A stretch of DNA of 60,732 bases, counting the filler, from Hausera hauseri (taxonomy: Eukaryota): assembly GCA_046269625.1 (NCBI GenBank). It is 11 parts of 11 records of this genome, joined end to end, with 100 filler letters (N's around TTAATTAATTAA, not from the genome) between each part and the next. Parts side by side here need not be neighbours in the genome. Positions count along the whole stretch, not along the records: positions 19,103 to 25,182 come from JBJURY010144313.1; 10 more parts are not named here. One strand, given 5' to 3'. Within the stretch, counting starts at the first letter, position 1, and each line of letters begins with the position of its first letter. The translations under genes and the position numbers were made by a program. The notes beneath the pieces were generated by a model that saw only the letters and a program-made list of their open reading frames with translations, ran no database searches and was not told where the DNA came from. Shown here one piece after another: positions 5,768 to 60,732 of the stretch.

Positions 5768-7017
5768 TATCCACGTCGATATCAGTTTCGACAGCTCACC
5801 AGATACAATCAATTTTGCGATCAAAGCACTGGTTTGTAAATGCTAAGACCCACCTGATAAATGCTACGCCCAGTAATCAGTACTACGTAACTCACAGTGA
5901 CTATACCTATAGTCTAAATTATCCGCAAACGCCACAAATGCCTAACAATCTCAAGGGGTACAGCATGGGCAATAGATCGCTTGCCCTGATACAACTAACG
6001 AAGGCGACCTCTTTTCACCTCCAGGATCTAATAATTCTACCAGAATGATTTCACTTAATAAATGTATACAATATAGCCGGCAAACTCCACATCAAGACTA
6101 CGAGTTGTAAAACCTCCATTCAAGGAGATATAATCAATTTGGACCCAGATCATGCGTTAGCATTCGATTATAGCTTTATAAAAAGCCACGCCTTTAAAAT
6201 TCGGTCTCTCTCTAACTCAATCATGATAGCTTTCGAAATTATCAAACGTGAGAATTTCCAAGCGTTAATCCCAGAAGGAAAATGTTTTCATCGTTCTGAA
6301 CTGGACTGCGTCAAATACAAAACTATCCTGTACAGAAGGATACAAAATATCACGAACAAAGATGTGGTCATCGCTGCTGTTAATCTAGCATATGACCAGT
6401 GGAACCAAATGCAGCCGATCGAATGCTCAGTCATAACATTAGACGGCCAGACCCTTTTCTACAGCATTACTTCCCCACGCCAAAGAATCAACAACTTTGA
6501 TACCCATCTTACGGGTTTGGCGAAAGCAAATATAAACAACCAGATGGATGTGAACGACTTTTATCACAAATATCTGAAGTTTGTACGGATAAAGTTATAA
6601 TAGGAGCCGATGTACTCCAGATGGTAATCATGTATTGCAAATGCCCATTCAGGCGGGTAGCCGGAGTTCGCAATATTCTTTATCACGAAGAGGCTATCCG
6701 CAAATACCAATTAACCACCAATACTTATAAGGAGTTGGCTAAAAAGTTCTACGACACTCGTGGAATGCCACTCCCAAGTACAGCCTTGGTACAGTGTTAC
6801 CAGGCCATCTATAAACAATTAAAATAGACCGACGAAATTATCACCCAGTCTTCGGCCTCCGAACAGGTGCGAATAGCACCAATTTCTGGAAGGAAACGCA
6901 AGTTCCAGACGGATGAAACCGTAACAGTCAATGGTGAGATTTACGAGCCAGAGTCGATCAGGTACAAGAGTAAAACTTCAGACAAATTCATACACATCCC
7001 CTTATCGTTGGATTAGT
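5768..7017 (+). pseudogene. DEDDh (REX/ISG20-like) exonuclease-fold accessory protein, divergent copy without RING
   Basis: PNNLKGYSMGNRSL / SFHLQDLI / AFKIRSL align with PNDLKGTTEENRAI / AHSLKELI / FKFRIAAL of 20320-22728. PIECSVITLDGQTLFYSITSPRQRINNFDTHLTGL...KVIIG follows the DEDDh pattern. Stops at 6046 and 6825, frameshift near 6585. Preceded by acceptor-like CATTGACATTTCTCCTTACAG. Confidence 0.65.
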
Positions 7018-8410: not shown

Positions 8411-9261
8411 TTATATTCAATGATTTTGCTACTTTAGTTATGGGACTGCGCACACAGAGCTGAGTAATAATATGAGGAGAACCCTTTAAAAACGATATTG
8501 GTTAAGCATATAATCATCAACATAAAAATAAACATTTCTACATACATTGTGATGATTCCAGTCATTTTCAGGTTCAGTAATGTTCTGTCAAAGTCAGGTC
8601 TGTCAGTGTCAGCTGTTCAGGAAAATCAACATACATTTTTTCTTACACTAACTGTCTAGTTGTACTTTTCTCTGCGTCTTCAGACAATCTGCAGCAGCTG
8701 AGACTCTGGGAGGTTCAACACCAAAAACTAAGCCGTCGACTGAATCAAGACGCCTTTCAAACAACTACAGTAGTTAACCTGCTCTATTGGTAGCTGTTAT
8801 GGTGTCTCCTTAATCTGTACAGACTGACCTTGGTCGTCTTTGAATACACAGCTTTATGGTGTTTTCTTTTGTTAATTGATTATAGTAAATATTTGAACAT
8901 CCATGTAAGTTTATAGACATTTAATTTGCAATTTGAACTTGTTAAAAATTCAAAAGATTTGGGCAAATATTCCATCTGCCCTTTGTGTGCAGTGAGGTGA
9001 ACATTAAAGTTAATTAATTAAACATTTTTGTCATCTTCTTTCTACAGTATAAATCAAATGATGCCTTTATTAAAAGCATTTATAAAACTTTTTTTCTGCC
9101 ATAAAGCAGTGGTCAAACTATTGGTAAATGTTAGTAATTTACTTTCAACAAATGGAAACCAAAAAGGTTTTAAAGTAAAGACGCTATGTAAACTCCTTAA
9201 CTACCACAGGTCACATTTCCACTGTATGCAAATAATTTGAGTACAATTGAGTGAAAATTGT

Positions 9262-9462
9262 ACAGCAGGGCTTCAACTCCAGTTCAGGAGGTTCGGTGAC
9301 CTCCAACCTTTGGATGTCTCTTCTTTAACACACCTGAGTCAAATCATGAGGTCAGAGGTCATTAGCACGACTCTGGAGAACTTGACTGTCCTAAGCTACA
9401 ATTTAATTCAGATGTGTTGGACCAGGACGTATCTTGCAGGACACCAGACATCGATGCCTTGA
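9262..9462 (+). repeat. Teleost-type short interspersed repeat (MITE-like)
   Basis: TCATTAGCACGACTCTGGAGAACTTGACTG...ATTCAGATGTGTTGGACCA...TTGCAGGACACCA is shared with 55333-55440 in the fish-like contig 11. Confidence 0.65.
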
Positions 9463-10799
9463 TCTGAGGATCCTGTCAGAGGATCAGTGAGTTCCTGCAG
9501 CAGCTCCATCGGATCAAAATGTAAATGAGATCTGAAAGATCCTGATCCTCCAGAAAGTGAAATAACACCAGACCTGATCCATCAGTCAGCTGTTTCGTCC
9601 TGTGTAGAGATAAATATAAACTGTTATTTATACACATAGAAAGTCACTAAACTAAAATCAAAATGCAATGCATTTCACTTAATTATATTCACTTAGTGAA
9701 ATATTATGTTGACTAAATAAAAGATTGACATTTTTCAAGCTTTTATTTTCTGCTTACATCTAATGAAAACACAACATTTAAGATTAAAATATTGCATCAG
9801 ACTAATTACATTTTTATTACAGAAATGTAAAAAAACAACTAAGAAAAAAACCTTTAGAGTTTATGCTAAATGGGACAGCTTATAGGAATGCTATCGTTTT
9901 AAAAAAAGTTATCTTTTATCNNNNNNNNNNNNNNNNNNNNNNNNNNNNNNNNNNNNNNNNNNNNTTAATTAATTAANNNNNNNNNNNNNNNNNNNNNNNN
10001 NNNNNNNNNNNNNNNNNNNNTGTTCCAAGAGCACCTGCAAATCGTGAAATATTTTGGACGAGGTAAAATTGTTTTGTATTTTTATAGTTTGATGCCTCAA
10101 ATATGCCTCCAATACATATTACCCTTAAAAATAATATAAAGTGGTGCTAGAATTCTGTAGTTATGCCAATGTGAACTAATTATTCATTTTATTATTATTA
10201 TTGTTATAATTTTCTTTTTTGGGTCACTATAACTGTCTGTTTGTTTTTTGTGCTCTCCCACTTGTCTTGTAGAATTAATGAATGGATTGCAGTTCCACTG
10301 GTAGATTTGACTGGAAAGCAAAGTGAAACAATCACAATGATTATGGCGGGGCAGTTGTAAATCCATTTTCTGTCAGTCAGTTAAAAGGTTTTGATGTCAG
10401 GAATCATATGCTGAAATGAGCCATTTTCATTTCTCCCTATTAACACGTCACAATGGGAATATTTGCATATGGCACCATCGCTCACAGGTCAAACCCTACA
10501 AAATCCTAACACAGATCTGCCATTTTGGTACACTGGTTTTTACATCTGTACCAGATTCACAATTTCCCGTCGTCATTTCGATTCTGTTCATACAGGACAG
10601 CTTTAGTTTAAGATCCTACACCTGACAGGGACGGTCTGCGTTACTCGGAAAGTTTTATCATCAATGTTTGACTCCTCCCAAATCTCCAAATCACAGGAGG
10701 CTATGCACTCCAATCGTCTTGGCACAAGTGTCTTGCAGACTCAAGGCTAAGCTAAACTTAACACCACATCAGCTTTTGTTACCACATTTGTCTCACTAA

Positions 10800-11254
10800 T
10801 GAATAATATAATAATTACAACACAAAACACGAATCGTCAAGATTTGGAATCACGTTAGAAAATGTCAATTTTTCGTCCACAAGAAATTTTTTTAACTCTT
10901 CAGCAAGCTTTCGTTTCTGCTACTATTCGACGCTACAGTCGAAGTTATTCTGTCCTTTTGTCATTTACTACTATATTTATATACTATATCAACTTGTAGA
11001 CAGCTGCGTATTATCTACATATTTTATTTACATTTTCAGATTACTCTCACATTTCCAACATATGTTTCGATTCTAAATTAACGGATTTTTATGCAACAAC
11101 TGCGGAAACAATAAATTTTCTACTCAGTAAATTTCTAATCTAATATTGGTTTACTTTCACCAATTTCTAATATTACCATAATGTATTTACAATTGGAATA
11201 TTTATTCAACCACTATGGTGCTATTTACAAACCACTACAGTGCTATTCACAACA
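10800..11254 (-). repeat. 3' LTR, partial (distal boundary uncertain)
   Basis: Minus strand reads PPT AGGGAGGAGAAA (11255-11266) then TGTTGTG. TATA-like GTATATAAAT near 10975-10985. Confidence 0.6.
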
Positions 11255-13564
11255 TTTCTCCTCCCTGAGCCACATGCTCGGATGTGCCTATTGCGTTAGG
11301 AGAGGTGACACCATCATTTGGACGTTGTAAGGCATTTAACCTCTCTCGTAAGTCGCTTTGGAAATTTATTCTTCTACTGGTTTGGGGATTTTGCTCCAAG
11401 TAATAAGCAGTAGATGCTTTTATCTCGACTACCCTATTATTTTCGCCACGAGAAAAGTATTTTAACTGGGATGCTTCTGCTCGGCATACTGGGCATGTCG
11501 TTTTTCCATTAATCAGCATCCATTGTTGCAAACAATCTCGACAGTGACGATGTCTACGGTTTTTGTTTGCTAGAATTACATAGCCTTGCCATAAATTGGC
11601 TTCGCATACGGGGCAAAGGTTTCCAGTGTCATTGTCCAGATCGCAATCTGTAACCTAATTTATCTCCTGAAATAATAATCCTTTTGGGTTCTTATACAGA
11701 TATCCATGCAATTGTTTCTGGTCGGTATCAATTGAACTTTTCCGTGGGTCTCCATTAACGGCTATTAGGGTTTACTCAATCACGGGTTGGACGTCTAGGT
11801 CTGGGATTCCCATTTTCTTATACTGTTTCTTTATCTCTATTTTGGTCTGGTTGTCAACTGGTACAGTTATTCTCTTAGTTCCTGTTTTCGACTTAAATAC
11901 TGGAGTTAGATATCTGCCTAACTTGAGGTCAATTTGCGCATAAGCATTTTCATGTAGTTCCAATACTGGCACTGTATGAATGTAAAATACCGCGTCTTTG
12001 ATCTTCCCCCGACTTACATATTCTGCCATTATCATGATGCTAGGGTGTTCTGCCGTGTCCTTACGGGCTTCTGTGGTAATTATTTCTTTGTCTTGTCCCC
12101 TTTTTAGAACATTCACTTCCGTAAGTTTCTCTGGTATATTTTCGGTAGGATGTTTTCTGATCTGTTCAGTTTGGGATGATCTTTTTTCTTTCCTCTTTAG
12201 AAATCCGAATATTGATTTCTTTTTCTTTTCTGGAGATGGGTCTCTCAGTTTGGGCTTTTTGGTTGATGCTCCTTGGTAGCTTTCCTCTCCTTTCTTTGTT
12301 TTTGTAGGTACTTGGAATTCATATGTAATAGTACTTGTTTTATGTTTGGTGGCATCCTTTTTGCTTGATGTTGTAATTTGCATATTATTGTCCCTTTTAG
12401 GTTCGACAATCCGTATTGGTGAATACGGTTGAAATTGTTTTCGGTAGCGGGAATCCAACTCCTTCGGTTTCCTGCTGCTTTGTAAGTTATTTTTGGGATT
12501 TAGTGACGACTATTCATGATCCCATTTGATCGTAGCGTAAACATCACGCAAATATTGGGTTCTTTTGGTAGCTGACAACTGTCGATTGATTCTGTGTTGG
12601 GTTTCGTTCATAATTTCTACAATTGCTTTGAAATGTGCTTCCATGGTCATGAGAACTAGTCGATTTACACTGTCAATCTTCTCCTTGATCTTAGGGTGAG
12701 CCCAAAATTCTCGTATCCCTGCTATATTTTTAGTATTTATTTTCAGTTTGTCTATTTGTTCCTGGACTTAAAATCCTGCGATCATACATCCGTATAAGCA
12801 GTGGTTTAGCTCCATTTCTACAATTTTGATGTCTTTCCCATTTACCAAATCTTCTTTTCTTATGCCTGTTATTTCCGCAAACGTTTCTTTCACTCTTTTC
12901 CGAGGGATAATCAATCTAGAGTAAACTTCTATCCCGTTCATATCTCTAATCAAAACTTCAATGGGAATGGAATTTCCGTCATCCCCTTCTCCTTAATTTG
13001 TTGAAATAATACGGACGTTCCGTCTGTCTTGTACCCGTTTGTATGATCCCAAATATTGATCTATCTCATCTTCTGTCGGATACTGATAGTATATCAGGGG
13101 AGGCAGGGGTATAGTTGGAATTTCCTCACAGGTGATTTCCATAATAAATTTTACAGGTAGGGATGCGATTCTTAACTCCACTTCTTTTGCCAAACTTTCT
13201 CCTTGTATCTTAAAGGTGCTGAACTTATACTGTCGTCCTTTGTTGGAATCCCAGTTTTGTTCAGTCAGTCGATAGTAAATTTCTCCTTCCGTCAAATGTA
13301 TGTATATATCATTGTTATGTCCTAGTTGGAATTTCAATAATTTTCTCAGATTATAAGCTCTGGCGTCTTCATTGTTCCTCATTGCATATAACATCAATAC
13401 TCGATTTTCTTTAACGATCCCACTTTATTATATTCAATCGCTATCTTGTTCTGTAGATCCATGTGGATATGTCTGTAGATGGATTTGGAGCTCGGGGTGA
13501 TTATGATTGCATTCTCTTACAAAAATCCGTCAATGTCCATACAAAAATTGCTGCTGGTCGCCAT
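11247..13564 (-). pseudogene. DEDDh-like pseudo-nuclease / RING finger fusion, disrupted
   Basis: Fragments 12993-13397, 12768-12953, 11772-12458 and 11247-11531 are colinear with the contig 5 protein. RING reads CPVC..RHRHCRDC..CPVC. Several stops and at least one frameshift. Confidence 0.75.
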
Positions 13565-13675
13565 ACTACTCACAAATCTGAAATAAAACAAATAAAGGTT
13601 AATCCTAAGACAGATCCTTGTTTCATTACAAAACAATTTTACTGTCTGATGATAGAATAACCTGACCTGTAGTTG

Positions 13676-14449
13676 TCAGGTTATTTTATCATATAAATCA
13701 CTTTGGTAAACCACCTTTATCCCTCCATCCTTATTTTTGCGCTGTTTTCTACAATTTTTGGTAACTATATAAAATGACGCAATTAATATTAATAAGACGA
13801 ACGCTGACACTCTAATAGTCGATATAATAGATGAAGTTGTTAATGCAATTGGTTTCTGTGTTATCATATATGTAGTAATTATGTTTTCTGTCTTGACTTA
13901 TTTGTAAATCTGGGTAATTACTTTCTGCTAAGGTGCGTAAGGTTATTGTCTTATTTTGCTTTCCTGCTGCATTAATTTGTATTATATATTCTGTCTGAGG
14001 TTTTAATGTGTTACATTCTGCTTGTCGTGTATTCTGTATAAGTTTTACTTTTTGTCTGTCATATAAGGTTCGACAGTTTATTTCTATATCGTAGTTCAGT
14101 CCTTCCTCAACAAAGAACACTATTCTATACTGATGGATCGAATATCTGATAGGTATGTTTTCAAATTTTACTTTACATATATTGTTAGTTGCAATAATTC
14201 GGGCGGCCGACTTTTTAGTCGAGGTTTCCATTGAAATTTTCAAAATTCTATTTTCTGGATAGTAGATTCGTAATTGTATACTTGGTTGATTGGGCCGTAT
14301 CTTGTATAAGTCGAATCTTATTTTGAATTCTTAATTCACGGGTATTTTACAACATGGATGTTGCACACCTGCACGGATGGAACAATATTCCATTTTCGGA
14401 GTTGGTCCTATTACTGCCTCGAATACGATGCTGATTTCCTGATTGACAG
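13676..14449 (-). pseudogene. FN3-like type-I membrane protein, frameshifted
   Basis: NTLKPQTEYIIQINAAG..ITLRT resembles the fibronectin type III LxPxTxY signature. Followed, in a shifted frame, by TM VSAFVLLILIASFYIV and basic tail KNCRKQRKNK. Confidence 0.6.
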
Positions 14450-15335: not shown

Positions 15336-17394
15336 AAATTCATCATCATCATTATTGTTGTAAATGCGTTCGTTTTGTAAAAATCGTATATTTTATTTTG
15401 TACAACGACGACGGCGACAAACGTACAAATTACCACGAGCTCATAATTGAGTACTATTACTACTCATAAGGAGAATGATTGTGGTGACGGTGATGGTGGT
15501 GACAGTCTGCCTACAAACTAATGAGTACCACCAAATGTGAAGCTAAAATTATTGAAAATATCATATTATTTCTCATGATTTTTTAGCTCTTTAGTCTGAA
15601 GTTCAATCCTGAAATATTGGACATTTGAAGTCGAGACTGTGTTGATTTTTGGAGGCACTGTTTTTTAAATCAGCAATGTGTGTCAATAAATTATGATCAT
15701 TACACATACTAACATATAAAATACCATGGCACTTAGTTTATCGTCATTTCGAAAATTTGCGACAACCGAAGATGTATCATCCAGTGAACGTTCGTTTTTT
15801 TTCTTTTAATAATTTTTTATATTACTATTTTATTATTAATTTTAATATTTTATTAATTTTGCTTTTCATTATTAATTTTTCTAAATGACCTAGTTTTGGA
15901 CATCTGCACAATCGTACTCACCGCACTGAGTTCAGTCGGAAAAGTTTTGGACTAACCCAGTTTGGGACACCGGCATTTCCCCACCTATCTAACTATAAAA
16001 GATCATTTTAATTTTTCGTCAACCTAGTTTTTGGTCGGACCACACCTGTCTGGCTATAACAATCAGGTATGCTGCCAAGTCAAGTCTGAATCGAACATTT
16101 ATTTCCCTGTGTTTTGTACGACAACAACAAGAACAATTACATTTTTTAGTGAATTAGGAGCACACAAACCACATGGGTTAAGCAATTCCGTAGGAGAATG
16201 AACGAGTCCATCGGAATTAGTTACATTGCAATGTTGCTTGAAACAAATCCGATCTGATGACTGCCACGTTGGAATGTAATCACCTTTGACAAAATCTTCC
16301 ACAAACCGTATTTGACATGGATTGCCATCCAACGCATAGTAATCCGCCAATTTCCGATAGGTGCGAAACAACTGACTGAATATTATATCCATGTCTCCAA
16401 CAACCTGCTTCATATGTCGTGGATAAGATTTTCGTGCTCTCCAATTTTCCTCAGCTCGCCGGAGTATCTCTTTTGGAGAGCAGTATCGTGATCATGTAAA
16501 GGTCGATCAAGATTGTAAAGGTGACTTCGGCGGCTATCGAACGAATGATATAATCGAATGAGTTCTGTTAAATAGGACATGTCGTAATGTCATACTGTAA
16601 AGAAGCGCATGTATTTATACTGAAATGTAACAACAAAGACACGTAAAATATATTATATTGATTCACGAAAACAAACATAGCAAAATAATACATATTTGTG
16701 ATTAAATACGGTCAATCAACTTTTTCATTACTATAAAAAGCTAAGCAGTAAATACAGGTCCAATGAGGAAATTAATATGTCGTTGTCGTTTTCGTCTCAT
16801 TTCATCCTCGATACGTTTTGCGAAGAGAAATCTGACCAGTAATTCAATATACTCTTGCCTGCTGATTATTCTCGTTTCTGTGAGCTCACATGAAACCGTA
16901 CATCAAACACACGTCCTGTCAAAATGTCATAGGTCAATCTCTGAATCACACTTTCAGTATACTCTTCCATTTGATTTAGAGTAGTAGTAGTAATGTTGAT
17001 AAACGTTTATAGCCGATTTAGGCGACATTTTTATTTGATTTAGTTTAACATTTACTTTAATTTGTATATCATTCAAAAATGTTCGCAATATCCCATGTAT
17101 TGCGTGTCCCACATACAAGAGGATGGACAATGCCACAAAGAAATGGCCAAATGTTATGCAGTGACCGAGGACACGTACCTGTGTCCCGTGTGTTTTATTC
17201 AAAACACATGCCCGTACGCCGATTTTTGTGAGATGCACAAGCATCACCTAGGTTCGTTCACGCAGTCCAAGAAGATGATGCATGGGCATTGCCCCACATA
17301 CCCACGTTAGTGTACTTGTAAGGTGCATGACGTTGATTGTTGCTATAGTGGAGCAGTACTATGGTACAACAACAACAGCAAACACAATATTGCA

Positions 17395-19002
17395 TGCAGC
17401 AAAGGCATATTTCTATATGACTTTGCAACATCATATGAGCGAATTCGGAGAGCAGAGAAATTACCGCCGCGATGGACAGGTATCGCAGAAGATAAATATC
17501 AAAGAGTACAAGAATCTTGGACAGAACCGGGCTGTAAAAACACGTTGGATTACATGCACCAGTATCTTAAACCGGACCTGTACTTATTAGCCGAGGTGTT
17601 CGAAGCATTTCGGACCAAAGCGCTGGCGGAAGATAGGTTGGAGCCACTCAACTTTTATTCCATACCGGGAATGAGTTGGGTGTTAATTCTAGTGTCACTG
17701 GATCGAGACATTGAGCTGTTGCAAGACCCGGAAATGCACCGGCTGTTTGATGTTGGTATTTGCGGCGGCATGATATTTGTCAACAAGCATCAGGCCAGTG
17801 CTACCGATACCACATCACTGATGTATATTGATATTAATAACCTGTAGGGCTGGGCGCTTTTGCAACCCTTGCCGTAAGGTTAATTTGAATGGGTAGTCGA
17901 CAGACAAGATCTGAACGACATAATGGTCAACCTACCACGAGCAGACACGGCAGTCTCAGTTGGAGGTCGATCTTAAAATACCAGATGAGCTGCATGACGT
18001 TTTGGACGATTTACCGGTCGCACAATTTAACCAATCTCCGCCAGGCTCAAAAGTGAAGAAACTGCTCATGACACATGAACCCAAGCTGAATTACGTGGTC
18101 CATTGGCGTCTGCTACAGTTCTACATTCAGCTCGGTGTACGCGTCACAAAGCTGCATCGTGCAATCCGATTTGCTCAGGTTCTCATATTCAAGGCGTACA
18201 TAGATGGAAATGCGGTGAAACGAGCCGCAGCTTGTACAAAATTTGAAAAGGACTATTACAAGCTGAAAAACAAATCCCTGTACGAAAACAGTGGAAAATC
18301 TGAAAAAGCGGCTCAATGCGTGCCTAAGTAACTCGGAATAGCGGATAGTTACGTATACCAACAAGGCACAGTTTCGGCGGTCAATGCACATCGCCGGTGG
18401 ATTGGTTGCCATGCTTTTAAACAGTAAAGAAGTCTTACTGGACCGGCCAAGTTATACAGGACAAGTGATATTGGATCTGAGCAAGTTGCGGATGGATGAG
18501 CTGCAGTATCGCGATTTGGCATGTTACGGGTAAATGTTCGGCAGCGGATGCAAGATCAATTTAATTTCCGGTGACACAGATAGTATTTTCTTGGAACTGG
18601 AAAACGTCAGTCGCGAACAACTACTGCGGCAAATGATAGCAGACGGATTACTGGACATGTTTAATTACCCACATAATCATCCATTGTATAGCAACGCCAT
18701 CACAAACAAAATCGGCTGCTTCAAGGATGAAAGTGAAGGTAGTGTCCGGTATCGGAAATGGATACTCCTACGCTTAAAGTGCTACAGTCTTCTGACGGAC
18801 TGTGGACCGAAAGTGTGGACAAAAGGAGTCTAGCTGAGACAGACGGGAATCGGCCACGGTGATTATCGACGCATATATGAAGCAGCAGCAGCAGCAAAAG
18901 GAGGACAATCAGAGAGTGTTGTGTCTCAAACGATCATCCGATCAATTGAGCACCAGCTGTATACAATAACTAGTGCGAAAGTCACTTTGTCATATAACGA
19001 AA
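17395..19002 (+). pseudogene. Protein-primed family B DNA polymerase of a Polinton/Maverick
   Basis: KGIFLYD..LPP, YLKPDLYLLAEVFEAFR, motif A YIDINNL*GWAL, motif B KLKNKSLY, motif C SGDTDS, IGCFKDE, LRLKCYS, KGV. Multiple stops and frameshifts. Confidence 0.92.
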
Positions 19003-19102: not shown

Positions 19103-19404
19103 TTTAACCCGTCTGGGTCTCCGTCGTATGCCGGTAAATTCAAAGAATCAAACGTAAATATATCCAGTTTCTGTGCCAAAACTAGGTTATCCACTGCCAT
19201 TTTAACCTTGTTTGGTTTGTCTACTTTAATTTTAGGAACTTTAAATTCTTTGCCAGAGGGTAATTCAATATCAGATAAACAGTGTTTATCTATTACCTTA
19301 TCTTTGGTATAAAGTTTATTACGTGTTTCTCTTTGATTGAGTTTCTCCTTGTCGTTTACTAATAAGTTTTGATTTGAATTGAACCTATCAATGTTTGCTC
19401 TCAA
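19103..19404 (-). CDS. gag: Probable gag N-terminus (truncated by contig end)
   Basis: Open frame downstream of the PBS containing LPAYDGDPDGL, like the LPxFDGxP start of Gypsy capsid domains. ATG candidate at 19200 (MAVDNLV). Confidence 0.55.
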
Positions 19405-19554
19405 TTTAATTTACTTAGTCCCTTCTAACCACTTATAAACCAAATTTAGATTCTCTTAACTCTTATTGCATAACGATTATTTGGTGTAATTGGCGCTATT
19501 CGCCATTATGTCTTTAATTGACTCTCAAAAGTAATGTCTAGAGAGGTAAAAGCT

Positions 19555-19572
19555 GTCCTGCTAGGGTCGCCA
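19555..19572 (-). promoter_or_regulatory. Primer-binding site, tRNA-Arg-like
   Basis: TGGCGACCCTAGCAGGAC, 18 nt, 2 nt after the LTR-terminal CA. Complementary to a tRNA 3' end GUCCUGCUAGGGUCGCCA resembling animal tRNA-Arg. Confidence 0.8.
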
Positions 19573-19574
19573 AA

Positions 19575-20324
19575 TGTTACAGTTGGGGTGCCCCTTACCG
19601 TCTCCCACTATAACAATATTTATTAAAAGTTTAGTTTCTCGTGAGCCGGTTAGGACTATTCGTTCTCGAATAGTCGAATGTACCTTATATTTTAAGACGT
19701 TAGGTAAATTATTCACAACTGCTGGTACTGCTTGATAAAACACTGCGTGCTTTAGTTAATAAATTCTAGTCCTACTTATGGAGTTTAAGTAAAATTTTAA
19801 CCTTAGGGTAGTATAAATCGTATGGAAGAGACGATGGAAAAACTATATAGAAAGTTGAAAATAATAAACTTAAAATAACCTTTATTCAGTGAACCCGGTA
19901 ACAACTTCAATATAGAAAAACACAGCTTCGATTGGATTAGTCAATAACAATAAAGTCTTTTAGAGTTTCTTGAATCAACTCTAAAGTCGTCCGACAACTA
20001 ATTTCGAAATTCTAACTTCTCATTCTCGTCTCTAATGGGGCTGTTTATATAGTTGAAATCAGGAATTCCATTACTAATTTTTCTAAATTTATTTACATTA
20101 CTAATCTAATTTTCATGGTTTTTATCCATTTTCTAAATTTATTTGCATTACTAATATACATTCCGACTATTCATATGTCAATTAAATTCTGTGTCAGTCT
20201 TCGTATATCTGGAAATCATTCGCTGAATGCAATTATATCTGATTACAAATTTTCTAAATATATTTCAATTACAAATTTTGTGTTTGAACTATACATTCCT
20301 TATGTTTATGTCGACTCTGCTACA
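19575..20324 (-). repeat. Complete 750-bp LTR
   Basis: Starts TGTAGCAG directly after PPT AGGGAGAAGAAA (20325-20336) and ends CTGTAACA before the PBS. Contains TATATAAA (about 20043-20050) and a downstream AATAAA (19881-19886). Confidence 0.88.
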
Positions 20325-22728
20325 TTTCTTCTCCCTGAGCGGCATCCTCGAAGGAGCCTATTGCGTCAAAAGAGGTGGCGCCCAATGTTCTAGGATGTCT
20401 CAAGAGGACTAGTCTTTGTCTCAAATCACTCTCAGAATCCGTTCTATTTTGATTATGCGCAGGGTTTGTTTCTAGATTATAACTAAGATGGGGTTTAATA
20501 CGTATCACTCGAGTGTAACTTCCATCCGCATAATATTTCAGGTCCGTGGCCTCCGCCCGACATACTGGACACGTTGTTTTTCCATTTTCGAGTGTTTATT
20601 TCTCTAAACAATCTCGGCAGTATTTGTGGCGGCAGATTTTATTATCTAATACTACATATCCTTGTTTTAGGTTACCGTCACATACAGGACATTCGTTGTC
20701 TTCTTTGTCTTAATCATCTCTATCCAAGTCTACCTGGATTGTGAATTCAATCGGTTCAAATACAAGACCGTCCTTGTCTTGATATAGATATCCATGGATC
20801 ACTTTTTGTTGAGGGTTAATTGAACTTTTCCTTGGATCTCAATCCACTTGTATTAATGTCCAGTCCGCCAAGTAGTCTCGATCTATATCTGGAACTTTTC
20901 CTTCTACACGATACTTTTGATATTGTTTTTTCAACAGTATACGGATTTGCTTGTCCACTGGGACTATTATTTTTCCTGTCCTCTTTGAACGGAAAATTGA
21001 GGTAAGGTGGTTTCCTAACTTTGGGTTTTCCCAGACATACGTATTTTCAAAAACCTCCCTGGCTGGGACAATTTTAATATAGAACATCGCCTCTTTAATC
21101 GTTTTCTTGCTACAATACTCAGTGGTTATCAGCATCCTTTGGTAATTTTGAGTTGTTTTGTGGTGGATATTTTCTTCAGTCCTTTTCTGTAGCAAAACAT
21201 TGATCTCAGTTATCATCGATTTCGTTTTCTTTACAGGATTATGCTTTTGGGAGATATTTGGTTCAATTCGTTGGTGTTCTCTCTTTTGTTTCTCCTCTTT
21301 TCTTTTCTTGAATAGATAGTTATAAATAGATGGCTTTTTCTTTATTTGTTGCTCGTCTTCCAATTTTTGTCTTTTCACTTTTGTTTCTGATTTTAATTCT
21401 TCTTTGCGCCCTTCTAAGAATTTTGGTGTTTTACTAGGTATTTTATCTTCCTTTCCAATTTCTGGGACTTGTGTTTTGTTTTCTTCCTGCTGTTGTATAG
21501 TGATCATAAGACTACGCTCATTCATTTGTAAAACAGCTTTGATCGGGGAGTAAGATTTAATATTCCGTCTATATCTGATATCTATTTGTTCGGGTTTTAG
21601 GGAACTATGTAAATTATCTGTGGGGTTTCTCGGGGCCCATTCATGTTCCGACTTTAACAACTTGTAGATTTCTTGTAAATATTTGGAACGCTGACTAGCC
21701 GTCAAGAGTCTTGGAATTTTGTTTGAGTCCTTTTTCATTGCTTCAATCATTAGTTTAAAGAAGGCTTCTGGGGCGGTTGGTCGATTTCTCCCTTGTACGG
21801 TCCTCTCCATTCGTTCTTGAACTATTGGGTGGGTGTCTATTTCCCTAAGTCCGGCAATATTCGCATCGGATATTCCTAATAGCTCGATTTCTCGTTTTAC
21901 ATTGTATCCCGTTATCATACACCCGTAGATGCAATGGTCTAACTCAGAACGGACCTGTTGAATATCTTTCCCGCTTATAAGTTGTTCTTTTCTTAAACCG
22001 GTTACTTCCGCGTATGATTCTTGAACGTGTTTTCGGGGATTTATAATAGTGGAGTAAAGCTCCGTTTTATCCCTTTCTCTAATAGATACTTCGATAGGTA
22101 CCCCATAACCATCGTCTCCTCTGCCACAACTTATTGCCATAATTCTTATGTTGCGGCTATCTTTAACTAATCTATATGACTGACGGTGTTTGTTTTTTTC
22201 TACTTCGATTGGAATTTGTTCAAATTCTAGAACTGGCAAGCCGAAGTTGCAGTTCTCTCTATAGGTTACTTCAAACATATGTTTAACAGGCAGGGCTGCA
22301 ATTCTGAATTTAAAGCCGTAGTCAATGTGTTCTAACCTTTTTTTACTTATTCTAAATGTACTAAAGCGATATTGGCGCCCTTCGTCAGATTTCCATGTTT
22401 GACTTTCTATTTTATAATATAGTTCGTTGTCGGCTAAACGTATGTATATATCCTGAATTTTCACTGGTCGATATCTGATTAATTCCTTTAAAGAATGTGC
22501 TTTTGCTTGGTTACCTTCACGCATCGTGTAGAGGTAAATCGCACGGTTTTCTTCTGTGGTGCCCTTCAAGTCATTTGGTATTTCGTTTACATTCCGATAT
22601 TCGACGTACATTTCTGTTCGTAGTACGTCATTTATCCTTCTGTATATAGCTTTTGATTTGGGAATAAAGACTGTAGCGTATCCTTGTAGGAATTCGTCGA
22701 CTCTAATTCGGCTGATCATACTTACCAT
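20320..22728 (-). pseudogene. About 800-aa protein: novel N-terminal domain + DEDDh-like domain + basic linker + C3HC4 RING
   Basis: The 629-aa ORF continues in frame through three stops into CPVC..CRHKYCRDC..CPVC and ends AQGEEM* over the PPT (2409 nt, one frame). DEDDh-like core IEVSIRERDKTELYSTIINPRKHVQESYAEVTGL..DIQQVRSEL..MITGYN. Confidence 0.78.
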
Positions 22729-22762
22729 TCTGAAAGAAAATACAAAATAAGGGTCAGTCCTA
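22720..22762 (-). promoter_or_regulatory. Splice acceptor (branch point, pyrimidine tract, CAG) followed 4 nt later by a donor consensus
   Basis: ACTGAC CCTTATTTTGTATTTTCTTTCAG|AATG|GTAAGT. The homologous site in contig 3 (13568-13605) reads ATTAAC CTTTATTTGTTTTATTTCAG|ATTT|GTGAGT. Confidence 0.65.
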
Positions 22763-22830
22763 AAACAAAGTATTGTTCTGAATCTGAACCAATTCTTTGT
22801 CTGATGGTGGAATAACCCGATCTGTAGTTG

Positions 22831-24200
22831 TCAGATTATTCCATCATTGATTTCGTTCTGTGGTACCATCACCCTTAATTCCCTCTCGGTGATTTTATGA
22901 CGCTTACTACAACAGTTTTTGGTGACCAATTGGCAAAACGCCATAAGAATTAAAGAGCAAATATTGATGTCTCAATAATTAATATTACTGAGAGTTATCC
23001 CCTTAGTTAGTTTTTCAGTTTTAACGGTAGTTGTAATTTCGCCTTCCACTTCCTCATTAGTTAGCAATTTCATTAATACAATCTCGTTTAACGTTCGTAC
23101 CGTAAAGGTTTTACTTCGTCTACTCTCTGCACTTATTTGTATTACGTAGTTGGTTTTTGGTTTCAATTAGGTACATTTGATTCGATGACTGTCTTTAACT
23201 AATGTTACTTTCTGATTATTATGCACTGTTCAAAAGCTTATTTCTACGTCGTAATTAAGTGCTTCTTCCACAACGAACGTCATTTCATATTGCTGTGTCC
23301 AATATTTTATAGGAATTGCTTCTAGCTCCTTTTAAGGTAATCCAGTCGTTTGTAGGAATTTTGTGGAAGTTGAAGTAGGTTTATTCATTTTCGAAGTCGT
23401 AATTCTTCTGGTTGTTGTTTCAAGTGGAATTCCTCAAATCGGATTTTTCAATTGGTAACTTCCTAAGAATATACTTGACTGGTTCGGCCGAACTTCATAT
23501 AGGGCCAGTCAAATTCTATATTTATATCCCTGAGATAACTTACAACATATGTTCGGCCTTCCGGCGTCGATCTGACAATACTGTTGGTTATAAGCTGTTT
23601 TGTCCACTCTCAGGAATTCAACCGTAATTACTCGTCCTTTAATCAACCGTCCTTTTGTGTTTATTTGGATACAATTATCTTTTAGGTTTTCCATTATACT
23701 CGCTATATTTTCGTCTAATATCCGTTTTAATGGGTCAGTGGATTTAAACATGTCTTCCAGTTCTATATTTAGATAATATCCATAAGTTTGTGGTATAACT
23801 AATTGTGAATTCAAATTTATTTCGGATTGTACTTCATTACAGTTCGGTAAATATGCACGATAGCTGAGAGCGTAAGAATGTCCTTACTCTACGTTGCAAC
23901 AAGTTGTATCGTCCTCTGGCTCGAATTTACAATCAGACTAGGTTTGGCTTAATAAGTCACGGAATAGTATCCGGATTTGCCCCTCATGTAATCCTGGTAA
24001 CCTAAACCCGACACATGGGGCTTCTGGCGAAAAATAATCTAATTTTATTGTTCGTAAAAATTTTTCGTCCTTTTGTTCTGGTTTATGCTCGGGAGTTCCC
24101 TCCTTTTGTGGCGGCGGTTTTAATCCGACTTTCCTGATTCCATATATATCGCTCAACGAATTTTCATCTACCCACCATTGGGCGTTAGACTTAGGCGTTA
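22831..24200 (-). pseudogene. Post-integrase ORF ending in FN3-like domain and TM helix, disrupted
   Basis: Fragments 23938-24156 and 23509-23814 are in one frame across stops. LKPKTNYVIQISAES..FTVRT (FN3-like), then ISIFALLILMAFCQLVTKNCC. Homologous to 13676-14449. Confidence 0.6.
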
Positions 24201-24213
24201 GGGCAGCAATTAA

Positions 24214-25182
24214 TTATAAGGCTACGATTATCTGTGCGTAAGATGTCGGTCTTGTGGTGANNNNNNNNNNATGTTTGGCCGGTTTTATATTTGTTTTAAC
24301 CACTTTTTGGATTGATACGACTTCTTTACCATTTTTATTAACATGGACTGTTGTTGGCGTTGTACGGACGATTACATACGGTCTTCTTCCGGTGCGTGTT
24401 AATTTCAAGGACGTGACTTTCTTCGCGACTGGGTAACGTATATAAACCCAATTTCTTTTTTTCAAATCATGAGGTTTAATCTTTTTATCATATTGTTTTT
24501 TAAATTGTTCCTGATACTCGAGCGATAATGTCTTCGCAACCTCCCAGCACTTTTGTAATCTTGTCTGTAAAACTTCTGCGAAGTTTTGTTCTAGAGCCTC
24601 GAGGTTCGTTTCATATAGTGTCATACCTAGATCCGTGGGTAAGATTGCTTCTCGTCCGTACATAATAAAGAACGGTGTAAACCCCGTTGCTGGATGTGGG
24701 GTCGTATTGATTGCAAACTGTGTCCCTTCTAGGAATTCATCCCAATCCTTTTGGTCTTTTGTCACTACGGTTGATAATATTCGAATAACTGTTGAGTTCA
24801 TCCGCTCGACCATTCCATTACATTGGGGGTGGTACGCGGTAGTGGTTAAACGTTCGATTTCGAATATCTTGGTAATTTTTTCGCATAATTCGCTTGTGAA
24901 ATTCCTTCCTCTGTCCGTTAAAATTTGTTCTGGTGGTCCATATCTGCAGATAATTTTCCTTACCACTGCATCGGCAAGTATTTCTGCCTTTTGATCTAAT
25001 AGTGCCACCAGTTCGACGACGTGAGTTAGTCCATCCACGCATGTTAGGATGTATCTGTTATTTTTGTGAGTTTTCGGCAGGGGTCCTACTATATCCATAG
25101 ACATAGCTTGCATGGGTCTATCCGGTACGTTTATAGGTTTTAGTTCTGCTACGTAGCCTTTCGTTTTCTTCTGTTTTGTCGC
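24214..25182 (-). CDS. pol: Gypsy integrase (catalytic core and C-terminus; 5' truncated)
   Basis: MDIVGPLP, TDRGRNF, TTAYHPQCNGMVER (D,D35E), TGFTPFFIMYGRE, GPY-like RPY. Confidence 0.95.
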   Translation of the reverse strand, partial: ATKQKKTKGYVAELKPINVPDRPMQAMSMDIVGPLPKTHKNNRYILTCVDGLTHVVELVALLDQKAEILADAVVRKIICRYGPPEQILTDRGRNFTSELCEKITKIFEIERLTTTAYHPQCNGMVERMNSTVIRILSTVVTKDQKDWDEFLEGTQFAINTTPHPATGFTPFFIMYGREAILPTDLGMTLYETNLEALEQNFAEVLQTRLQKCWEVAKTLSLEYQEQFKKQYDKKIKPHDLKKRNWVYIRYPVAKKVTSLKLTRTGRRPYVIVRTTPTTVHVNKNGKEVVSIQKVVKTNIKPAKHXXXXTTRPTSYAQIIVAL

Positions 25183-27134: not shown

Positions 27135-27655
27135 CAAAAATTTCCATAATTAAAAATTACAGCCAAATCAAAATGGGTGCCATATTCAAAATAACACCCA
27201 AAAATCAATCATTAAAATTACCGCCAAACCAAAATCGCTTTCATATTCAAAATATTACCCAAAATATCAATAATTAAAATTAGAACGAAATCAAAATGGC
27301 TTCCATATTCCAACAACACTCCAAAATATCCACCATTAAAATTACCGCCAAATCAAAATGGCTGTTATTCAAAATATCAACCATTAAAATTACCGCCAAA
27401 TCAAAATGGCTGTTATATTCAAAATATCCACCATTAAAATTACCGCCAAATCAAAATGGCTGTCATATTCAAAATATTACCCAAAAATATCCATCATTAA
27501 AATTAGAACAAAATCAAAATGGCTGCCATATTTCAATAACACTCAAAAATATCCACATTAAAATTACCGCCAAATCAAAATGGCTGTCATATTCAAAATA
27601 TCACCAAAAATATCCACCATTAAAATTACCGCCAAATCAAAATGGCCACCGCATT
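27135..27655. repeat. Minisatellite, about 9 degenerate units of 49-62 bp
   Basis: Recurrent AAAATATCCACCATTAAAATTACCGCCAAATCAAAATGGCTGTCATATTC. Confidence 0.9.
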
Positions 27656-37220: not shown

Positions 37221-40200
37221 TTAGTGATGTGCATAGAACATTATCTTCCGTTTGGGCCTAACGTACTGAGGTTGGAACCCATGCGACACTGGATTCTTCA
37301 TCCAGACAAATTGGGTTGTACATAGAGTGTACATAGAGTTGTGATTTAGTATTCTGCAGAAAAAATCGCTATTCAACGCAACAAAGTGCTCCTGCGCTGT
37401 CCGGATTGTTTCGTCAGTGGGTGTTTCATCGCACTCCGCCAACTCCAACAATGTGCGCACTGGTGTACCAAAGAGTGCCTCGGATGGAAAGCAGCCAGTG
37501 GTTATGAATGGGGTGTTCCGCCATCCCAGTAGAATGTAAAGAAGAAAGTTTAGCCAGTATTGATTGGAGTCGGCTAGAATTTTTAGGGAGATTTTCATAG
37601 TACAATGAAAACACTCCAGTAGCCCATTCAACTGAGGATTATAAGGTGTTGTGTGAATATGCTTGATCCCCAGTCGATTTACTAATGATTTGAAAAAATT
37701 CGACTCAAATTGGGGCCTTGATCAGTGATTATGTACTTAGGTGAGCCGAATATGCTGAGCCACGTGCGAATGCAGACATCTGCAATTGTCTCAGTGTTAG
37801 TTGAGTAAAGTGGGATAGCTTCTAGCCATCTAGAAGCACGATCCATCATTGTGAGAATAAATTCATGGCCGTTGTCAGGTGGAAGAGGTCCGACTATGTC
37901 CATGTGGATGGTGTCGAAACGTGATGTGCAGGGAAAATGATAGGGTGACGGCTTGAGGTGTTTTTCATCTTTAAACTTCTGGTATGCCGCACACTCCCTA
38001 ACCCAATCCTGCACATCTGTTCTTACTGATGGCCACATAACTTGGCGTTTAAGAAGGCGATAAGTAGCTTTGGATCCTGGATGATGCAAGGAATAGATAT
38101 TGGTGAATGCAATTTTTTGCAAAGGAGGTGATAGAATAATTTTAATAAACCCAGGATTAGAGGAGTCCAAAGATACTCCATCAATGATTTTGTAAGATTT
38201 GAAGGCGGAGAGAATCAACTCGTCTGGAAGGTTCTTTCGGAGTAACTCATTATTAAAAATGGTTGCAAATGTAACCGAGTCGACGGAACGCGACAATAAA
38301 TCAGCCGCTAAATTGTCAACCCCCGAAATATGTTTTATTTCGAACGCGAACGTTGAGAGATACGAAATCTGTCTCTCTTGACGTGGTGATGGGGATTTCG
38401 TGGTGAGAATATGAAGTAGGGGCTTGTGATCCGTTTGAATGGTGAATGTGCGTGAAATTAGAATATGTTTAAAATGCTTTAATGCTAGGACCACTGCAAT
38501 AAGTTCCATGTCTAAAGTCGAATGGCGTTGTTGGACTTTCGAGATATCTTCTTGAGAAGAATTCAAGAGGTTTATGGGAACCGTCCTTCAATTGATGCAG
38601 TACTGCGCCTGCTGCTATTGTGGAAGCGTCAGTTGTTAAGAAAAGTTCTGAATGTGGATCAGGGTATGCAAGGATTTCCACAGTTCTTAAATTATCCTTG
38701 AGGTGATGGAAAGAATTGACTATGTGGGCAACCCAGTGAATAAACTGTTTCTTTTTACCGGAGCTCAGTGAGGCAAATGGTGTCGTTAGTGTTGAACAGT
38801 GAGGCACGTACTTGCGCACGAAGTGAAGCGTTCCAAGGAAAGCGCGCATTTCTGTTGATGTGCGTGGTAGTTGGACATTTTTGAGTTGAGTGATGCGATC
38901 TTGCTGGGAAGAGTGGCCAGATTGGGTGATAACGTGTCCAAGAAAGTTGATTCTATGTTGAAAAAACAGCATTTAACAAAGTGTACTTAAAGGTTGTTCT
39001 GGTGCAAGCGTTGGAAAGTTATGCGGAAATGTTCGGCATACTCTGGGGGTGATGACGCGATAAGAGTGTCATCTATATATTGAAAAGCAAAGTCTAGTCC
39101 GGCAAAAATTGTATCAATGTGTCTCTGGAATGTCTGTGAGGCACAGCGAAGCCCAAAAGCCATATAGACATTTGAAAAAACCTCGTGGTGTTATTACAGC
39201 CGTTTTCGGTATGTCAGCCGGAGCAACAGGAATTTGGTTATATGCCTTATGAAGATCGATGGACGAAAAAATTGTTTTACCATGCAGTCTTTGCAGGATG
39301 TCGTTGATCATAGGTAATGAATATTCGTCCATGATTGTAATGGTGTTTAGTTGGCCATAGTCACCACAAGGTCTGAAGGTGCCGTTCTTCTTGGGCACGA
39401 CGTGCAATGTTGATGCCCATGGTGATTTGGAACATCCGATGATGCCAGCGTTCTCTAAAGTCTGAAATTCATTAGCAACGGCTTTTCTGCGACGTGTTGA
39501 AAGAGGTCGCACTTTATGCCGAATTGGACGTTGATGAGAGGTAACAATGTGGTGAAATGTGTTGGAGTAATGCTTAAAGAATGGATATTTTTTGAGAGTT
39601 CTTTGGCATTGAGTGGTGACAAATGCTTGAAATTGGATGAGAGTTGGATAAAGGATGATGATGACATGGACACTTTATCATTGGGTACGGTAGTTTTTGA
39701 GATGATGTTGCCCGAAGAGGAAAACTCATTACTCTCAACGCTCGAAATATAGGTATTCGAGGTGTCATAATGTACAAGATTATTTACAAAATTTTTATTT
39801 TTTGAAATTATTTTGATATTCGGTCTTATAAATGAATCGCACGCTGGTGAAATTGAATGTAAAACTGATGAAACTGATAAAATTTTGGAGGAAGGGCTTT
39901 CCATCAAACGATGGTGTCTACAATCGACCAGTAAATTGTAATGTGAAAGAAAGTCTGATCCAAGGATTGGACTTTGCGCACTGGCTATTGTGAATTTCCA
40001 AGAAAAAAGTTCAGAGAAACCTGATATGGAAAAGGAAAGATTTGTTGTGACAATGGTGCGCAATGGTTCACCATTGGCTGTAAATAAGGGTTTTCTGATT
40101 GAAGAAGATTTTTGCGATTCATAAGAAAGAGGAAGAAGTGAGACTACAGCTCCAGTATCAATGAGGAAAGAGATGGAAGAATTTTTAGAAATAATGGTAG
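37221..40200 (-). pseudogene. pol: pol (PR-RT-RH-INT) of the CsRn1-clade element
   Basis: ORF fragments 39455-40063, 39114-39512, 38469-38972, 37682-38566 and 37221-37631 carry consecutive pol motifs. Confidence 0.88.
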
Positions 40201-40293
40201 CTTGCAGTGTGAAGACAGCAAAGAATGCATTACGGCTGTTTAATGAGGCGCTTTAGCCTTGATCAAAAGTTGCCGTGACTTCTGGTGGTGTGG

Positions 40294-40653
40294 TTAGTTT
40301 TTTGATGGCGTTGTTGGGTTTGACTGTGCCGATGAATTGTAAAATTTACAGCCTTGTATGCACTTGCGAGCATTGTCGCGAAATTTATTGTGATAAATGC
40401 AGACGGCCTCGTTTGATATCAATCTTTGATTGTAAAATCTGCATCCTATGCAGCATTTATTTGCGTTTTTCTTATATTTGGAGTGAAAAAAGCAGGTCAG
40501 GCCGCGCATAGGAGAAATGTTGCACGAATAACAACACGATCTTGTGGGGAGCTGTTGATTCTCAGAAAAAAATTTGCATCGCACTGTCATTTGTTTGAGC
40601 TTATCTTTGATGGCTGAAATTGCTTGTCGTAGTGCGACATTCTCTATGTGCAA
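40294..40653 (-). CDS. gag: gag C-terminus with tandem CHCC zinc motifs
   Basis: CFFHSKYKKNANKCCIGC and CIYHNKFRDNARKCIQGC. Confidence 0.75.
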   Translation of the reverse strand: MHIENVALRQAISAIKDKLKQMTVRCKFFSENQQLPTRSCCYSCNISPMRGLTCFFHSKYKKNANKCCIGCRFYNQRLISNEAVCIYHNKFRDNARKCIQGCKFYNSSAQSNPTTPSKN

Positions 40654-40811
40654 TGATTGAAGCTGATTATCAGTGTTTGTTATTGTGTTTTGATTATGTA
40701 TTACTAGCTTTNNNNNNNNNNNNNNNNNNNNNNNNNNNNNNNNNNNNNNNNNNNNTTAATTAATTAANNNNNNNNNNNNNNNNNNNNNNNNNNNNNNNNN
40801 NNNNNNNNNNN

Positions 40812-50904: not shown

Positions 50905-51677
50905 AACAACATCTGCTATAAGATTACTTGTCTCCTCAACTGGCACCTGGTGAAGGATGCATGAGTATGCCGCAAGTCTGTATGATGACGAATACATTTT
51001 GGAGTTCTTCTTCACAGAGACAATGTCACAATCATTTGAAGTTTCGCACTCAAATAACAACCCCCCAGTCTGTCATTATCTAGTTCGAGTTCTTTGATTT
51101 TTTTTTTGTGCACAGTTCAGTTCTTTTCTGACATCTCCCAACAGTCTCCGATATTGACATTTATGTTTACTTTTCTTCTTCTGCACTTTTGGACAAACCA
51201 GCTCAATAGACCGTTTTAATTTTCTAATTTCAGCATCCTTTTGCAGTACAATCTTCTTTAATTTCTGTCTTTCGTCTCGTAGTTTTGATACTATGTTTGC
51301 TTTGCGTTCATTAGCTTGCTTAATTCTTCTATTCCTATCACTAGACAAGAGCAAACGATCAAAATCGTTTTTAAGCTTTTGTTTGCTTGACACTAATGTT
51401 TTAAGTGAAGCCCGTCTGTTCACACATTTTTTGCAGTCTGACTTCAGTCGCTTAGGAGAGGGTGCTGTCACATTTATAGTTGACTCAGAGTTTATGACAC
51501 AAAAGGGAGGATGGCTGGCTGGTCGTTTGACTGGTGTAACAGGAGGGACTGAGGAAACTAGATGCTGAGAGCAAGGCAAGTCAGGGGTGGACCCTGCTTC
51601 TGAAAAGGTACCATCAGTAACATTAACCTTCTTGACTGGAATACTGAATGTTTCTTTTAGAAGACACAATAATGTGG
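50905..51677 (-). pseudogene. Basic coiled-coil protein fragment, possibly from a DNA transposon
   Basis: ORF 51076-51702 and frameshifted continuation 50905-51060. Interrupted upstream by a SINE tail. Family not identified. Confidence 0.3.
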
Positions 51678-51900
51678 CCATCCCATCCATCCATCCATCC
51701 ATCCATCCATTATCTATACACGCTTAATCCTTGAAGGGTCGCGTGGGTCACTGGTGCCCATATCCAGCAGTCACAGTGCGAGGGGCGGGGTACACCCTGG
51801 ACAGGTCGCAAGTCCATCACAGGGCCACACATAGAGACAAACGAGACAGACAACCATTCACACACTCATTCACACCTAGGGACAATTTAAAGTTACCAAT
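51678..51900 (-). mobile_element. 3' part of a teleost SINE (V-SINE/Mermaid-like) with (TGGA)n tail
   Basis: (CCAT)n then GGCGGGGTACACCCTGGACAGGTCGCAAGTCCATCACAGGGCC..CACACCTAGGGACAATTTA, typical of this abundant fish SINE. Confidence 0.75.
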
Positions 51901-52018
51901 TGGCTATGTGCACAATATGGCTTCCGCTAACTTCCGGCCAAAGGTTGTGAGGTCGAGAACTTCCGGGTAAACGTCTATATCATTCAGGTTGGATTGTTTT
52001 GATAGAAAACGGTTGAAA

Positions 52019-54472: not shown

Positions 54473-54544
54473 AGCAAGTATGTCAAAGTCCTGTCATCGA
54501 GGCCTGGTGTCTCTGATTTAACTGATCTTAATTAAATAATCCTG

Positions 54545-60460: not shown

Positions 60461-60732
60461 ATGGGAAAGCCGAAGTTAGCCGCGGCCGCTAGCACATCAA
60501 CACCCGGTTCTAAGCGCGTTCGGTCGGATGGCTCGGCATCCAGCCCCACGACAACTCCTGAAAAAAGCTTCACGGATATCCTGGAGTCCATTGATCAGAA
60601 GCTAACTAGCTTGGATGGCCGACTCGCTCTGGTGGAGGCTCTCCACAAAGAATTTCAGAGTCTTAGAGAGTCTCTGGAGTTCAGTCAGCAACAGGTAGCC
60701 GAGTTGGCTAACGACAACCATCAGCTGAGAGA
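60461..60732 (+). CDS. Probable non-LTR retrotransposon ORF1 N-terminus (coiled coil), runs off the window
   Basis: MGKPKL..KRVRSD..ILESIDQKLTSLDGRLALVEALHKEFQSLRESLEFSQQQVAELANDNHQLR: heptad pattern typical of teleost LINE ORF1. Confidence 0.55.
   Translation, partial: MGKPKLAAAASTSTPGSKRVRSDGSASSPTTTPEKSFTDILESIDQKLTSLDGRLALVEALHKEFQSLRESLEFSQQQVAELANDNHQLR

Follow-up and report, generated by a model that had tools for sequence, protein, structure and literature searches.

The window analysed here, a stretch of 60,732 nucleotides from Hausera hauseri (GCA_046269625.1), consists of 11 contigs joined by N-linkers, and the reading frame of interest, which joins a dead nuclease to a RING finger, is located on contig 5 (19103-25182). 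Read along its minus strand, this contig passes through the end of an integrase, a broken FN3-like frame, the accessory ORF, a purine tract, an LTR-like stretch, a site resembling a primer-binding site and a putative gag (Table 1). A high-copy Ty3/gypsy element carries the accessory ORF (22728-20320, minus) as its last gene. This agrees with the preliminary description, which had called the gene retroelement-encoded: an rve integrase lies upstream, and a polypurine tract (PPT) adjoins a TG...CA repeat downstream. This putative LTR is seen once, no second copy being present within the window. The last codons of the ORF overlap the PPT and the first bases of the putative LTR; the overlap had been assigned to the RING, and it belongs instead to the tail that follows. 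A total of 8062 related contigs from one DNA run align to this stretch at 80% likeness, and thousands of matching contigs in a single run indicate a repeated family. The fn3 match in the broken upstream frame falls under the cut-off (E 0.012), so that its FN3 identity is a weak match, and the gag-like piece is without Pfam support. The position of a primer-binding-like site and a possible gag directly behind the LTR (19105-19575, minus) may mean that tandem elements have one LTR in common or that the assembly has collapsed there.

Contig 5 ends inside the integrase; the order protease, reverse transcriptase (RT), RNase H, integrase is present on contig 9 and in the related locus L014. The contig-5 integrase is 79% identical to that of contig 9 over 68 aa and 41% identical to that of L014 over 289 aa, and the pol of contig 9 shares 76% nucleotide identity with contig 5 in the common integrase part. 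In front of this pol lies a gB/Monjiviricetes-type env (PF24664, E 1e-39). Since env and RT are on another contig, they are tied to the contig-5 element by integrase similarity and L014 only. Contig 9 and L014 share this placement of a gB-type env ahead of pol with the GAG-ENV-POL errantiviruses of nematodes, bryozoans and flatworms, described in a paper whose main text contains none of the words exonuclease, RING or fibronectin (PMC13524379).

Table 1. Features of the contig-5 element and of related copies in the window
Feature	Position	Strand	Basis or remark
C-terminal gypsy integrase (rve), cut by contig end	24271..25182	-	PF00665, E 3.4e-13
Scaffold gap beside integrase	24261-24270		10 N
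Broken FN3-like frame with hydrophobic, possibly membrane-spanning end	22851..24213	-	translation; same frame as integrase
Conserved non-coding segment with small hairpin, branch-point-like site and pyrimidine tract	22720..22847	-	75% nucleotide identity with contig-3 copy
Conserved hairpin, loop ACAACTA	22787-22847 and 13632-13692	-	about 80 nt upstream of acceptor
Acceptor-like AG	22731-22730	-	one base before ATG
Donor-like GTAAGT	22725-22720	-	just after ATG
Accessory ORF, 802 codons, ATG to TAG	20320..22728	-	single frame; homologue P0002, E 2.5e-112
N-terminal domain, aa 1-190, predicted AlkB/cupin-type double-stranded beta-helix without conserved HxD/E	22159..22728	-	model of relative L002
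DEDDh-fold pseudo-exonuclease, aa 191-365	21634..22158	-	AlphaFold block, pLDDT 70-91
Basic linker, aa 411-525, net charge +11	21154..21498	-	poorly conserved, 23-31% identity
Conserved pre-RING domain, aa 526-672 (147 aa)	20713..21153	-	48-49% identity to both other full versions
C3HC4 RING, aa 680-724 (Pfam match aa 678-724), one stop inside	20557..20691	-	Pfam; eight ligands
Internal stops of the ORF	aa 630 (20839-20841), aa 673 (20710-20712), aa 711 (20596-20598)	-	
PPT within last codons of ORF	20325..20336	-	sequence; layout repeated in contig-3 copy
Putative LTR, 750 bp, TG...CA	19575..20324	-	inferred from ends and neighbours
Possible gag start behind LTR and primer-binding-like site	19410-19105	-	position
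Second subfamily (contig 3), domain order unchanged, more decayed	11250..13534	-	tblastn, 43% over 752 aa
Third, distant version (contig 2): barrel, dead nuclease, short tail, without RING	5902..7016	+	tblastn, E 5e-6; profile searches
Env of gB/Monjiviricetes type sharing a frame with protease and RT; one stop; RNase H and integrase follow (contig 9)	40812-45251	+	relative of contig-5 element

Architecture of the accessory protein

All three versions of the gene in the window, on contigs 2, 3 and 5, are broken. A single stop had been reported for the contig-5 ORF, which in fact holds three; the contig-3 version has five stops between 13421 and 11250, and near its start another stop and a frameshift. 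As first described, the stops differ, none coinciding between the two contigs. These two versions are subfamilies rather than the two copies of one ORF for which they had been taken, because their proteins are 45% identical. In contigs aligned from one run (X1), 1936 of 2041 depth units differ from the contig-5 copy at the stop at aa 630 and 1349 of 1385 at that at aa 711, both positions being among the 40 rows listed of 244. Most other aligned copies hence do not have these two of the three stops, and among the listed rows a fixed stop before the RING is not seen. The expectation of an ORF of about 800 aa ending in a C3HC4 RING holds for its length and for the presence of the RING, which ends about 78 codons before the end of the ORF. 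A non-standard genetic code was considered and rejected, as the stops vary in type and place and the homologue P0002 is open.

P0002 is an intact natural homologue of 870 aa, 40% identical to the contig-5 protein, and is the only intact full-length homologue found; it is known as a protein sequence. It carries the barrel-type N-domain, the dead nuclease, the pre-RING domain and a RING above the Pfam cut-off in one frame, open to the same C-terminal end as the contig-5 protein. Judged by its sequence, P0002 is the decisive evidence that these domains form one protein and that the fusion of nuclease fold and RING, as originally proposed, is real.

The nuclease domain has the DEDD fold that had been suspected. 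An AlphaFold model of aa 1-380, confident for about aa 191-360 only, gives ISG20 as its best structural match (Foldseek E 8.8e-9; Z 19.7, rmsd 2.2, 158 aa aligned), a match that is not fully independent, since the alignment behind the model held ISG20-like relatives. A single-sequence search of the PDB returned five weak matches, four of them DEDDh enzymes, and in an Atlas search 28 of 30 matches (best 0.94) were to RNase_T clusters. The Asp-x-Glu of ExoI, described as missing from all three window versions, is indeed absent from each of them and is replaced by Ala198 and Ser200 in the contig-5 copy, with similar substitutions in versions that are 40-48% identical. The His and Asp of ExoIII are also lost, being Leu342 and Arg347 in the contig-5 copy and Leu and Cys in P0002. 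At ExoII an acid persists in the contig-5 copy alone (Glu280), the contig-3 copy having Gln and P0002 Met. With its ExoI and ExoIII residues replaced, the contig-5 domain has the fold of the DEDDh family and is predicted not to be an active member of it; mapping of the catalytic positions thus supports the claim of a catalytically dead enzyme, and the intact P0002 does not keep the acids either. The net charge of the domain is +3 in the contig-5 copy and 0 in P0002, unlike the charged patch of the corresponding domain of PML.

The N-terminal domain is predicted to be an AlkB/cupin-type barrel. In the contig-5 copy's own model this region stays under pLDDT 60, and the assignment of the fold comes from profile similarity (hhalign probability 88, E 2.9e-6 over 100 columns) to the domain of the relative L002, whose model (19 rows, pLDDT 79) is a double-stranded beta-helix. 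The best matches of this L002 barrel are Ofd2 (Z 11.2) and ALKBH6 (Z 11.0), with plain cupins close behind (Z 10.2-10.3), at 6-14% identity to structural matches; RNA-virus replicases and 2OG oxygenases make up most of its top viral matches. Across 23 rows, no HxD/E of an iron triad occurs at a shared position. Sequence searches of Pfam and PDB with the N-domain gave nothing convincing, and the Atlas search gave no usable match.

The RING exceeds the Pfam cut-offs for both PF13639 (29.5 versus 27.3 bits) and PF00097 (24.1 versus 21). Eight zinc ligands in RING spacing are present in the contig-5 copy and in P0002, and seven in the contig-3 copy, where the third is missing. Its profile matches the RINGs of RING2, RLIM, TRIM5 and listerin, with a best E value of 3.9e-5 and many solved E3 RINGs among the matches. 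The motif ends in Pro-x-Cys-Arg, the final Arg of which we take to be the 'linchpin' Arg of active RINGs. Outside the RING, the pre-RING domain has no convincing match in Pfam or PDB, and a word-index protein search with the alignment of pre-RING domain and RING yielded none among 2036 candidates. Within the window, the pre-RING and RING profile matches contigs 3 and 5 only, which upholds the earlier view that the contig-2 version is without a RING and that the gene is modular.

Comparison of the contig-5 and contig-3 versions identifies the RING as the most constrained part (68% identity), with the lowest pN/pS, 0.25, followed by the nuclease (0.44), the pre-RING domain (0.47), the N-domain (0.54) and the linker (0.79; 0.60-1.06); synonymous sites are saturated between the two, and for this reason only the ranking counts. 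By this sequence comparison, all folded parts are under constraint relative to the linker.

Upstream signals, relatives and order of events

The segment upstream of the ORF bears features that point to splicing. A pattern of acceptor-like AG, 4 nt and donor-like GT(A/G)AGT occurs in the window only at 22720-22735 and 13568-13583 (minus), the gene starts of both subfamilies; it may mark a micro-exon or let splicing switch to an acceptor further downstream. The hairpin lies in the stretch with the highest aligned contig depth of the ORF region; it has one two-sided change in a two-sequence fold and no Rfam match, contig 5 as a whole giving one chance-level Rfam match. Across related loci, a YAG ends 0-4 nt from 25 of 29 first ATGs, as against 19 of 213 internal ATGs and a background of 333 of 2887 upstream positions (11.5%); this rule was chosen after the data had been seen, a stricter first rule gives 12/29 versus 8/213, and the loci are related to one another. 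These signals suggest that the accessory genes are likely expressed from spliced subgenomic RNAs, and the acceptor signal offers an indication of how gypsy relatives express up to six downstream genes.

Relatives of the protein came from a HMMER search over 1.84 billion proteins (8 matches) and from scanning metagenomes, which yielded 15 mutually related loci in two data sets. They share the N-domain, for whose homologues a search had been proposed, and the nuclease with the contig-5 protein (hhalign probability 98.9 over 309 columns). In the tree set, all 18 related rows keep the catalytic motifs (DxE, the ExoII acid and HxxxxD), versus none of the five rows of the dead group. A word-index protein search with the full contig-5 reading gave no match among 5392 candidates, and one with a mixed alignment gave two matches; viral contigs held no relatives for either alignment searched, and metagenome contigs no match for the dead group.

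In L014, the active nuclease gene directly follows the env-pol polyprotein, whose gB-type env is matched at E 5e-94. In L011 and L012, the active nuclease comes after separate RING and TRAF-like genes (RING, zf-TRAF, MATH), which indicates that ubiquitin cargo and nuclease already travel together in these loci. The L012 RING genes were considered as the source of the fused module; such an origin is unsupported, the profile match being confined to the RING.

Several further observations concern the layout of these loci. Positions 1-9645 of L014 form one 3215-aa frame that holds the gB-type env, three aspartyl-protease-like stretches, RT, RNase H and integrase, together with further extracellular-looking segments with hydrophobic ends. 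L012:300-6727 and L011:54-4652 are arrays of up to six accessory genes, most with an AG just before the ATG, comprising RING-H2, unknown, RING, TRAF-like with MATH, coiled-coil and active nuclease genes. In L013, an LTR-like stretch and then a gag gene come after the same gene end.

L005 (truncated) and P0006 and P0010 (duplicates or near-duplicates) were left out of the tree, in which the dead rows cluster on a single long branch (88/95, not starred) amid the active ones, with the RING-less contig-2 row first. None of the 18 scanned relatives that keep the nuclease motifs has a fused RING. This topology fits a loss of catalysis before the fusion of the RING; the order is unsure, because this branch, besides its length, carries no star, long-branch effects are possible and the contig-2 row is partial. 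An active barrel-plus-nuclease gene would accordingly have lost catalysis first and gained the RING later. Together, these forms make up a natural series, in which the nuclease is active and alone, active beside separate RING and TRAF genes, dead without a RING, or dead and fused to one, and this series opens to experiment the question of how an enzyme turns into a targeting module.

Precedents and possible function

LTR elements are already known to carry each of the principal components singly: nucleases (PMC5408684), RING or TRAF domains (PMC6431247) and AlkB cargo (PMC9289625). The Juno and Vesta LTR retrotransposons of bdelloid rotifers encode a DEDDy protein in ORF3 and so, like the contig-5 element, bear a DEDD-superfamily exonuclease as an extra 3' gene; however, their ORFs are described as being of the DEDDy/RNase D type with intact residues, whereas the contig-5 domain, of the DEDDh/ISG20-REX4 type, is dead and joined to both a predicted barrel and a RING (PMC5408684). 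The same paper notes a change from DEDD to DEED, and 17 of the 18 active relatives found here likewise have Glu at ExoII; the word RING does not occur in its main text (PMC5408684). Burro/GYPSM1, a giant gypsy element of planarians, resembles the present lineage in having env in frame between gag and pol and in its ubiquitin-linked cargo (RING-type AIR1, MATH-TRAF and BIR), but this cargo is mostly part of the polyprotein and, as far as that account goes, includes no nuclease-RING fusion (PMC6431247). Gypsy elements of Phalaenopsis carry an AlkB demethylase ORF with an active domain and thereby a 2OG-dioxygenase-type domain as an extra gene; unlike it, the barrel predicted here is without a conserved HxD/E and is fused to a nuclease fold (PMC9289625). 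A DnaQ-like exonuclease is also listed as a known accessory domain (PMC6338049).

The closest functional parallel comes from a host protein. PML-1 (TRIM19) contains, in PXL, a DEDDh pseudo-exonuclease reported to bind RNA without cutting it, and thus combines, as the contig-5 protein does, a RING and a DEDDh fold without most catalytic acids in one protein (PMC13659232). In contrast to the contig-5 protein, PML-1 is a host restriction factor with an N-terminal RBCC and a TREX1/Exu-like EXO-SAM domain, whereas the contig-5 protein has the reversed order, with a C-terminal RING, an ISG20-like fold and an element-borne gene (PMC13659232). Neither the contig-5 protein nor P0002 has a B-box match in Pfam or evidence of a SAM domain, and the likeness to PML-1 is analogy rather than homology. 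No paper on a fusion of a dead nuclease to a RING in a retroelement was found in the open-access literature, supplements aside. The present analysis further adds, as new findings, the active relatives in their genomic surroundings, the unfused RING and TRAF genes that neighbour them, and the acceptor signal. To our knowledge, only a small number of proteins from animal retrotransposons are known to act against host control.

The preferred reading, to which we assign a probability of roughly 0.4, is that the intact protein serves as a ubiquitin ligase directed to RNA or RNPs, by which host factors acting on the element are removed or disarmed. The protein would be made from a spliced subgenomic RNA through the acceptor beside its start codon; its dead folds would bind RNA, its RING would recruit an E2, and its targets would be host silencing or restriction factors. 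The low net charge of the nuclease domain, at most weakly basic, counts against this reading. A more specific version of this account is doubtful on present evidence: an env-carrying gypsy lineage with retrovirus-like spliced accessory genes might, in one branch, have turned an active nuclease into an RNA-reading module and, by adding a RING, into an E3 that degrades small-RNA silencing or restriction factors. If true, such a transposon-encoded, RNA-targeted E3 would be the selfish-element mirror image of the host's PML-1. P0002 provides an intact natural protein for assays.

Alternatively, the dead folds could be protein-binding modules of an adaptor or decoy that brings host nucleases or signalling proteins to the RING, an explanation considered tentative. 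The weak net charge of the nuclease domain would suit it, as would the long branch that follows the loss of catalysis and is consistent with an altered surface, and substrates could in fact be received by the conserved pre-RING domain of 147 aa. Nevertheless, the nuclease core is whole in its fold and about as conserved as the pre-RING domain (43-46% versus 48-49% identity), and DEDD pseudo-nucleases such as Maelstrom and EXD1 (PMC5408684) and the PXL of PML (PMC13659232) are reported to keep RNA binding. It is also conceivable, though unlikely, that the ligase serves the element's own cycle, in particle assembly, budding, turnover of Env or Gag, or RNA packaging or export. The lineage has a gB-type env (PF24664), and the different subfamilies have retained the gene at the 3' end, preceded by a conserved RNA segment; against an essential step, however, accessory sets vary widely among relatives and the contig-2 version is without a RING.

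Manipulation of host cell survival or immune signalling, with the nuclease part incidental, has a precedent in the planarian Burro cargo (BIR, BCL2 and MATH-TRAF) (PMC6431247) and would fit the TRAF-like genes (RING, zf-TRAF, MATH) of L011 and L012 and the additional RING genes there. This explanation is quite unlikely, given that the contig-5 RING is without a BIR, TRAF or MATH partner domain and that the dead nuclease and the barrel are themselves constrained. That the gene is a functionless relic, in which captured pieces hitch-hike and the lost catalytic residues are mere decay, would agree with the broken state of all window versions, but it is very improbable. The intact P0002 is without the same residues, and an open frame with a dead site contradicts a relic; in addition, the ExoI substitutions are alike across divergent versions and the pN/pS values of all folded parts are well below that of the linker.

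Other features of the window

Positions 50905-60732 and about 9250-9920 contain frames of the THAP, Harbinger-like transposase and YqaJ-like kinds along with DNA that resembles repeats. These regions look fish-like to us, and the window may mix two organisms. A further set of segments, 17311-18830 (+), 37221-40710 (-) and 27148-27655, includes fragments that we take to resemble a protein-primed DNA polymerase B element, one frame of which was scanned without a Pfam match. Also in this set are a second gypsy pol, which is decayed, and a satellite of the 62-bp type.
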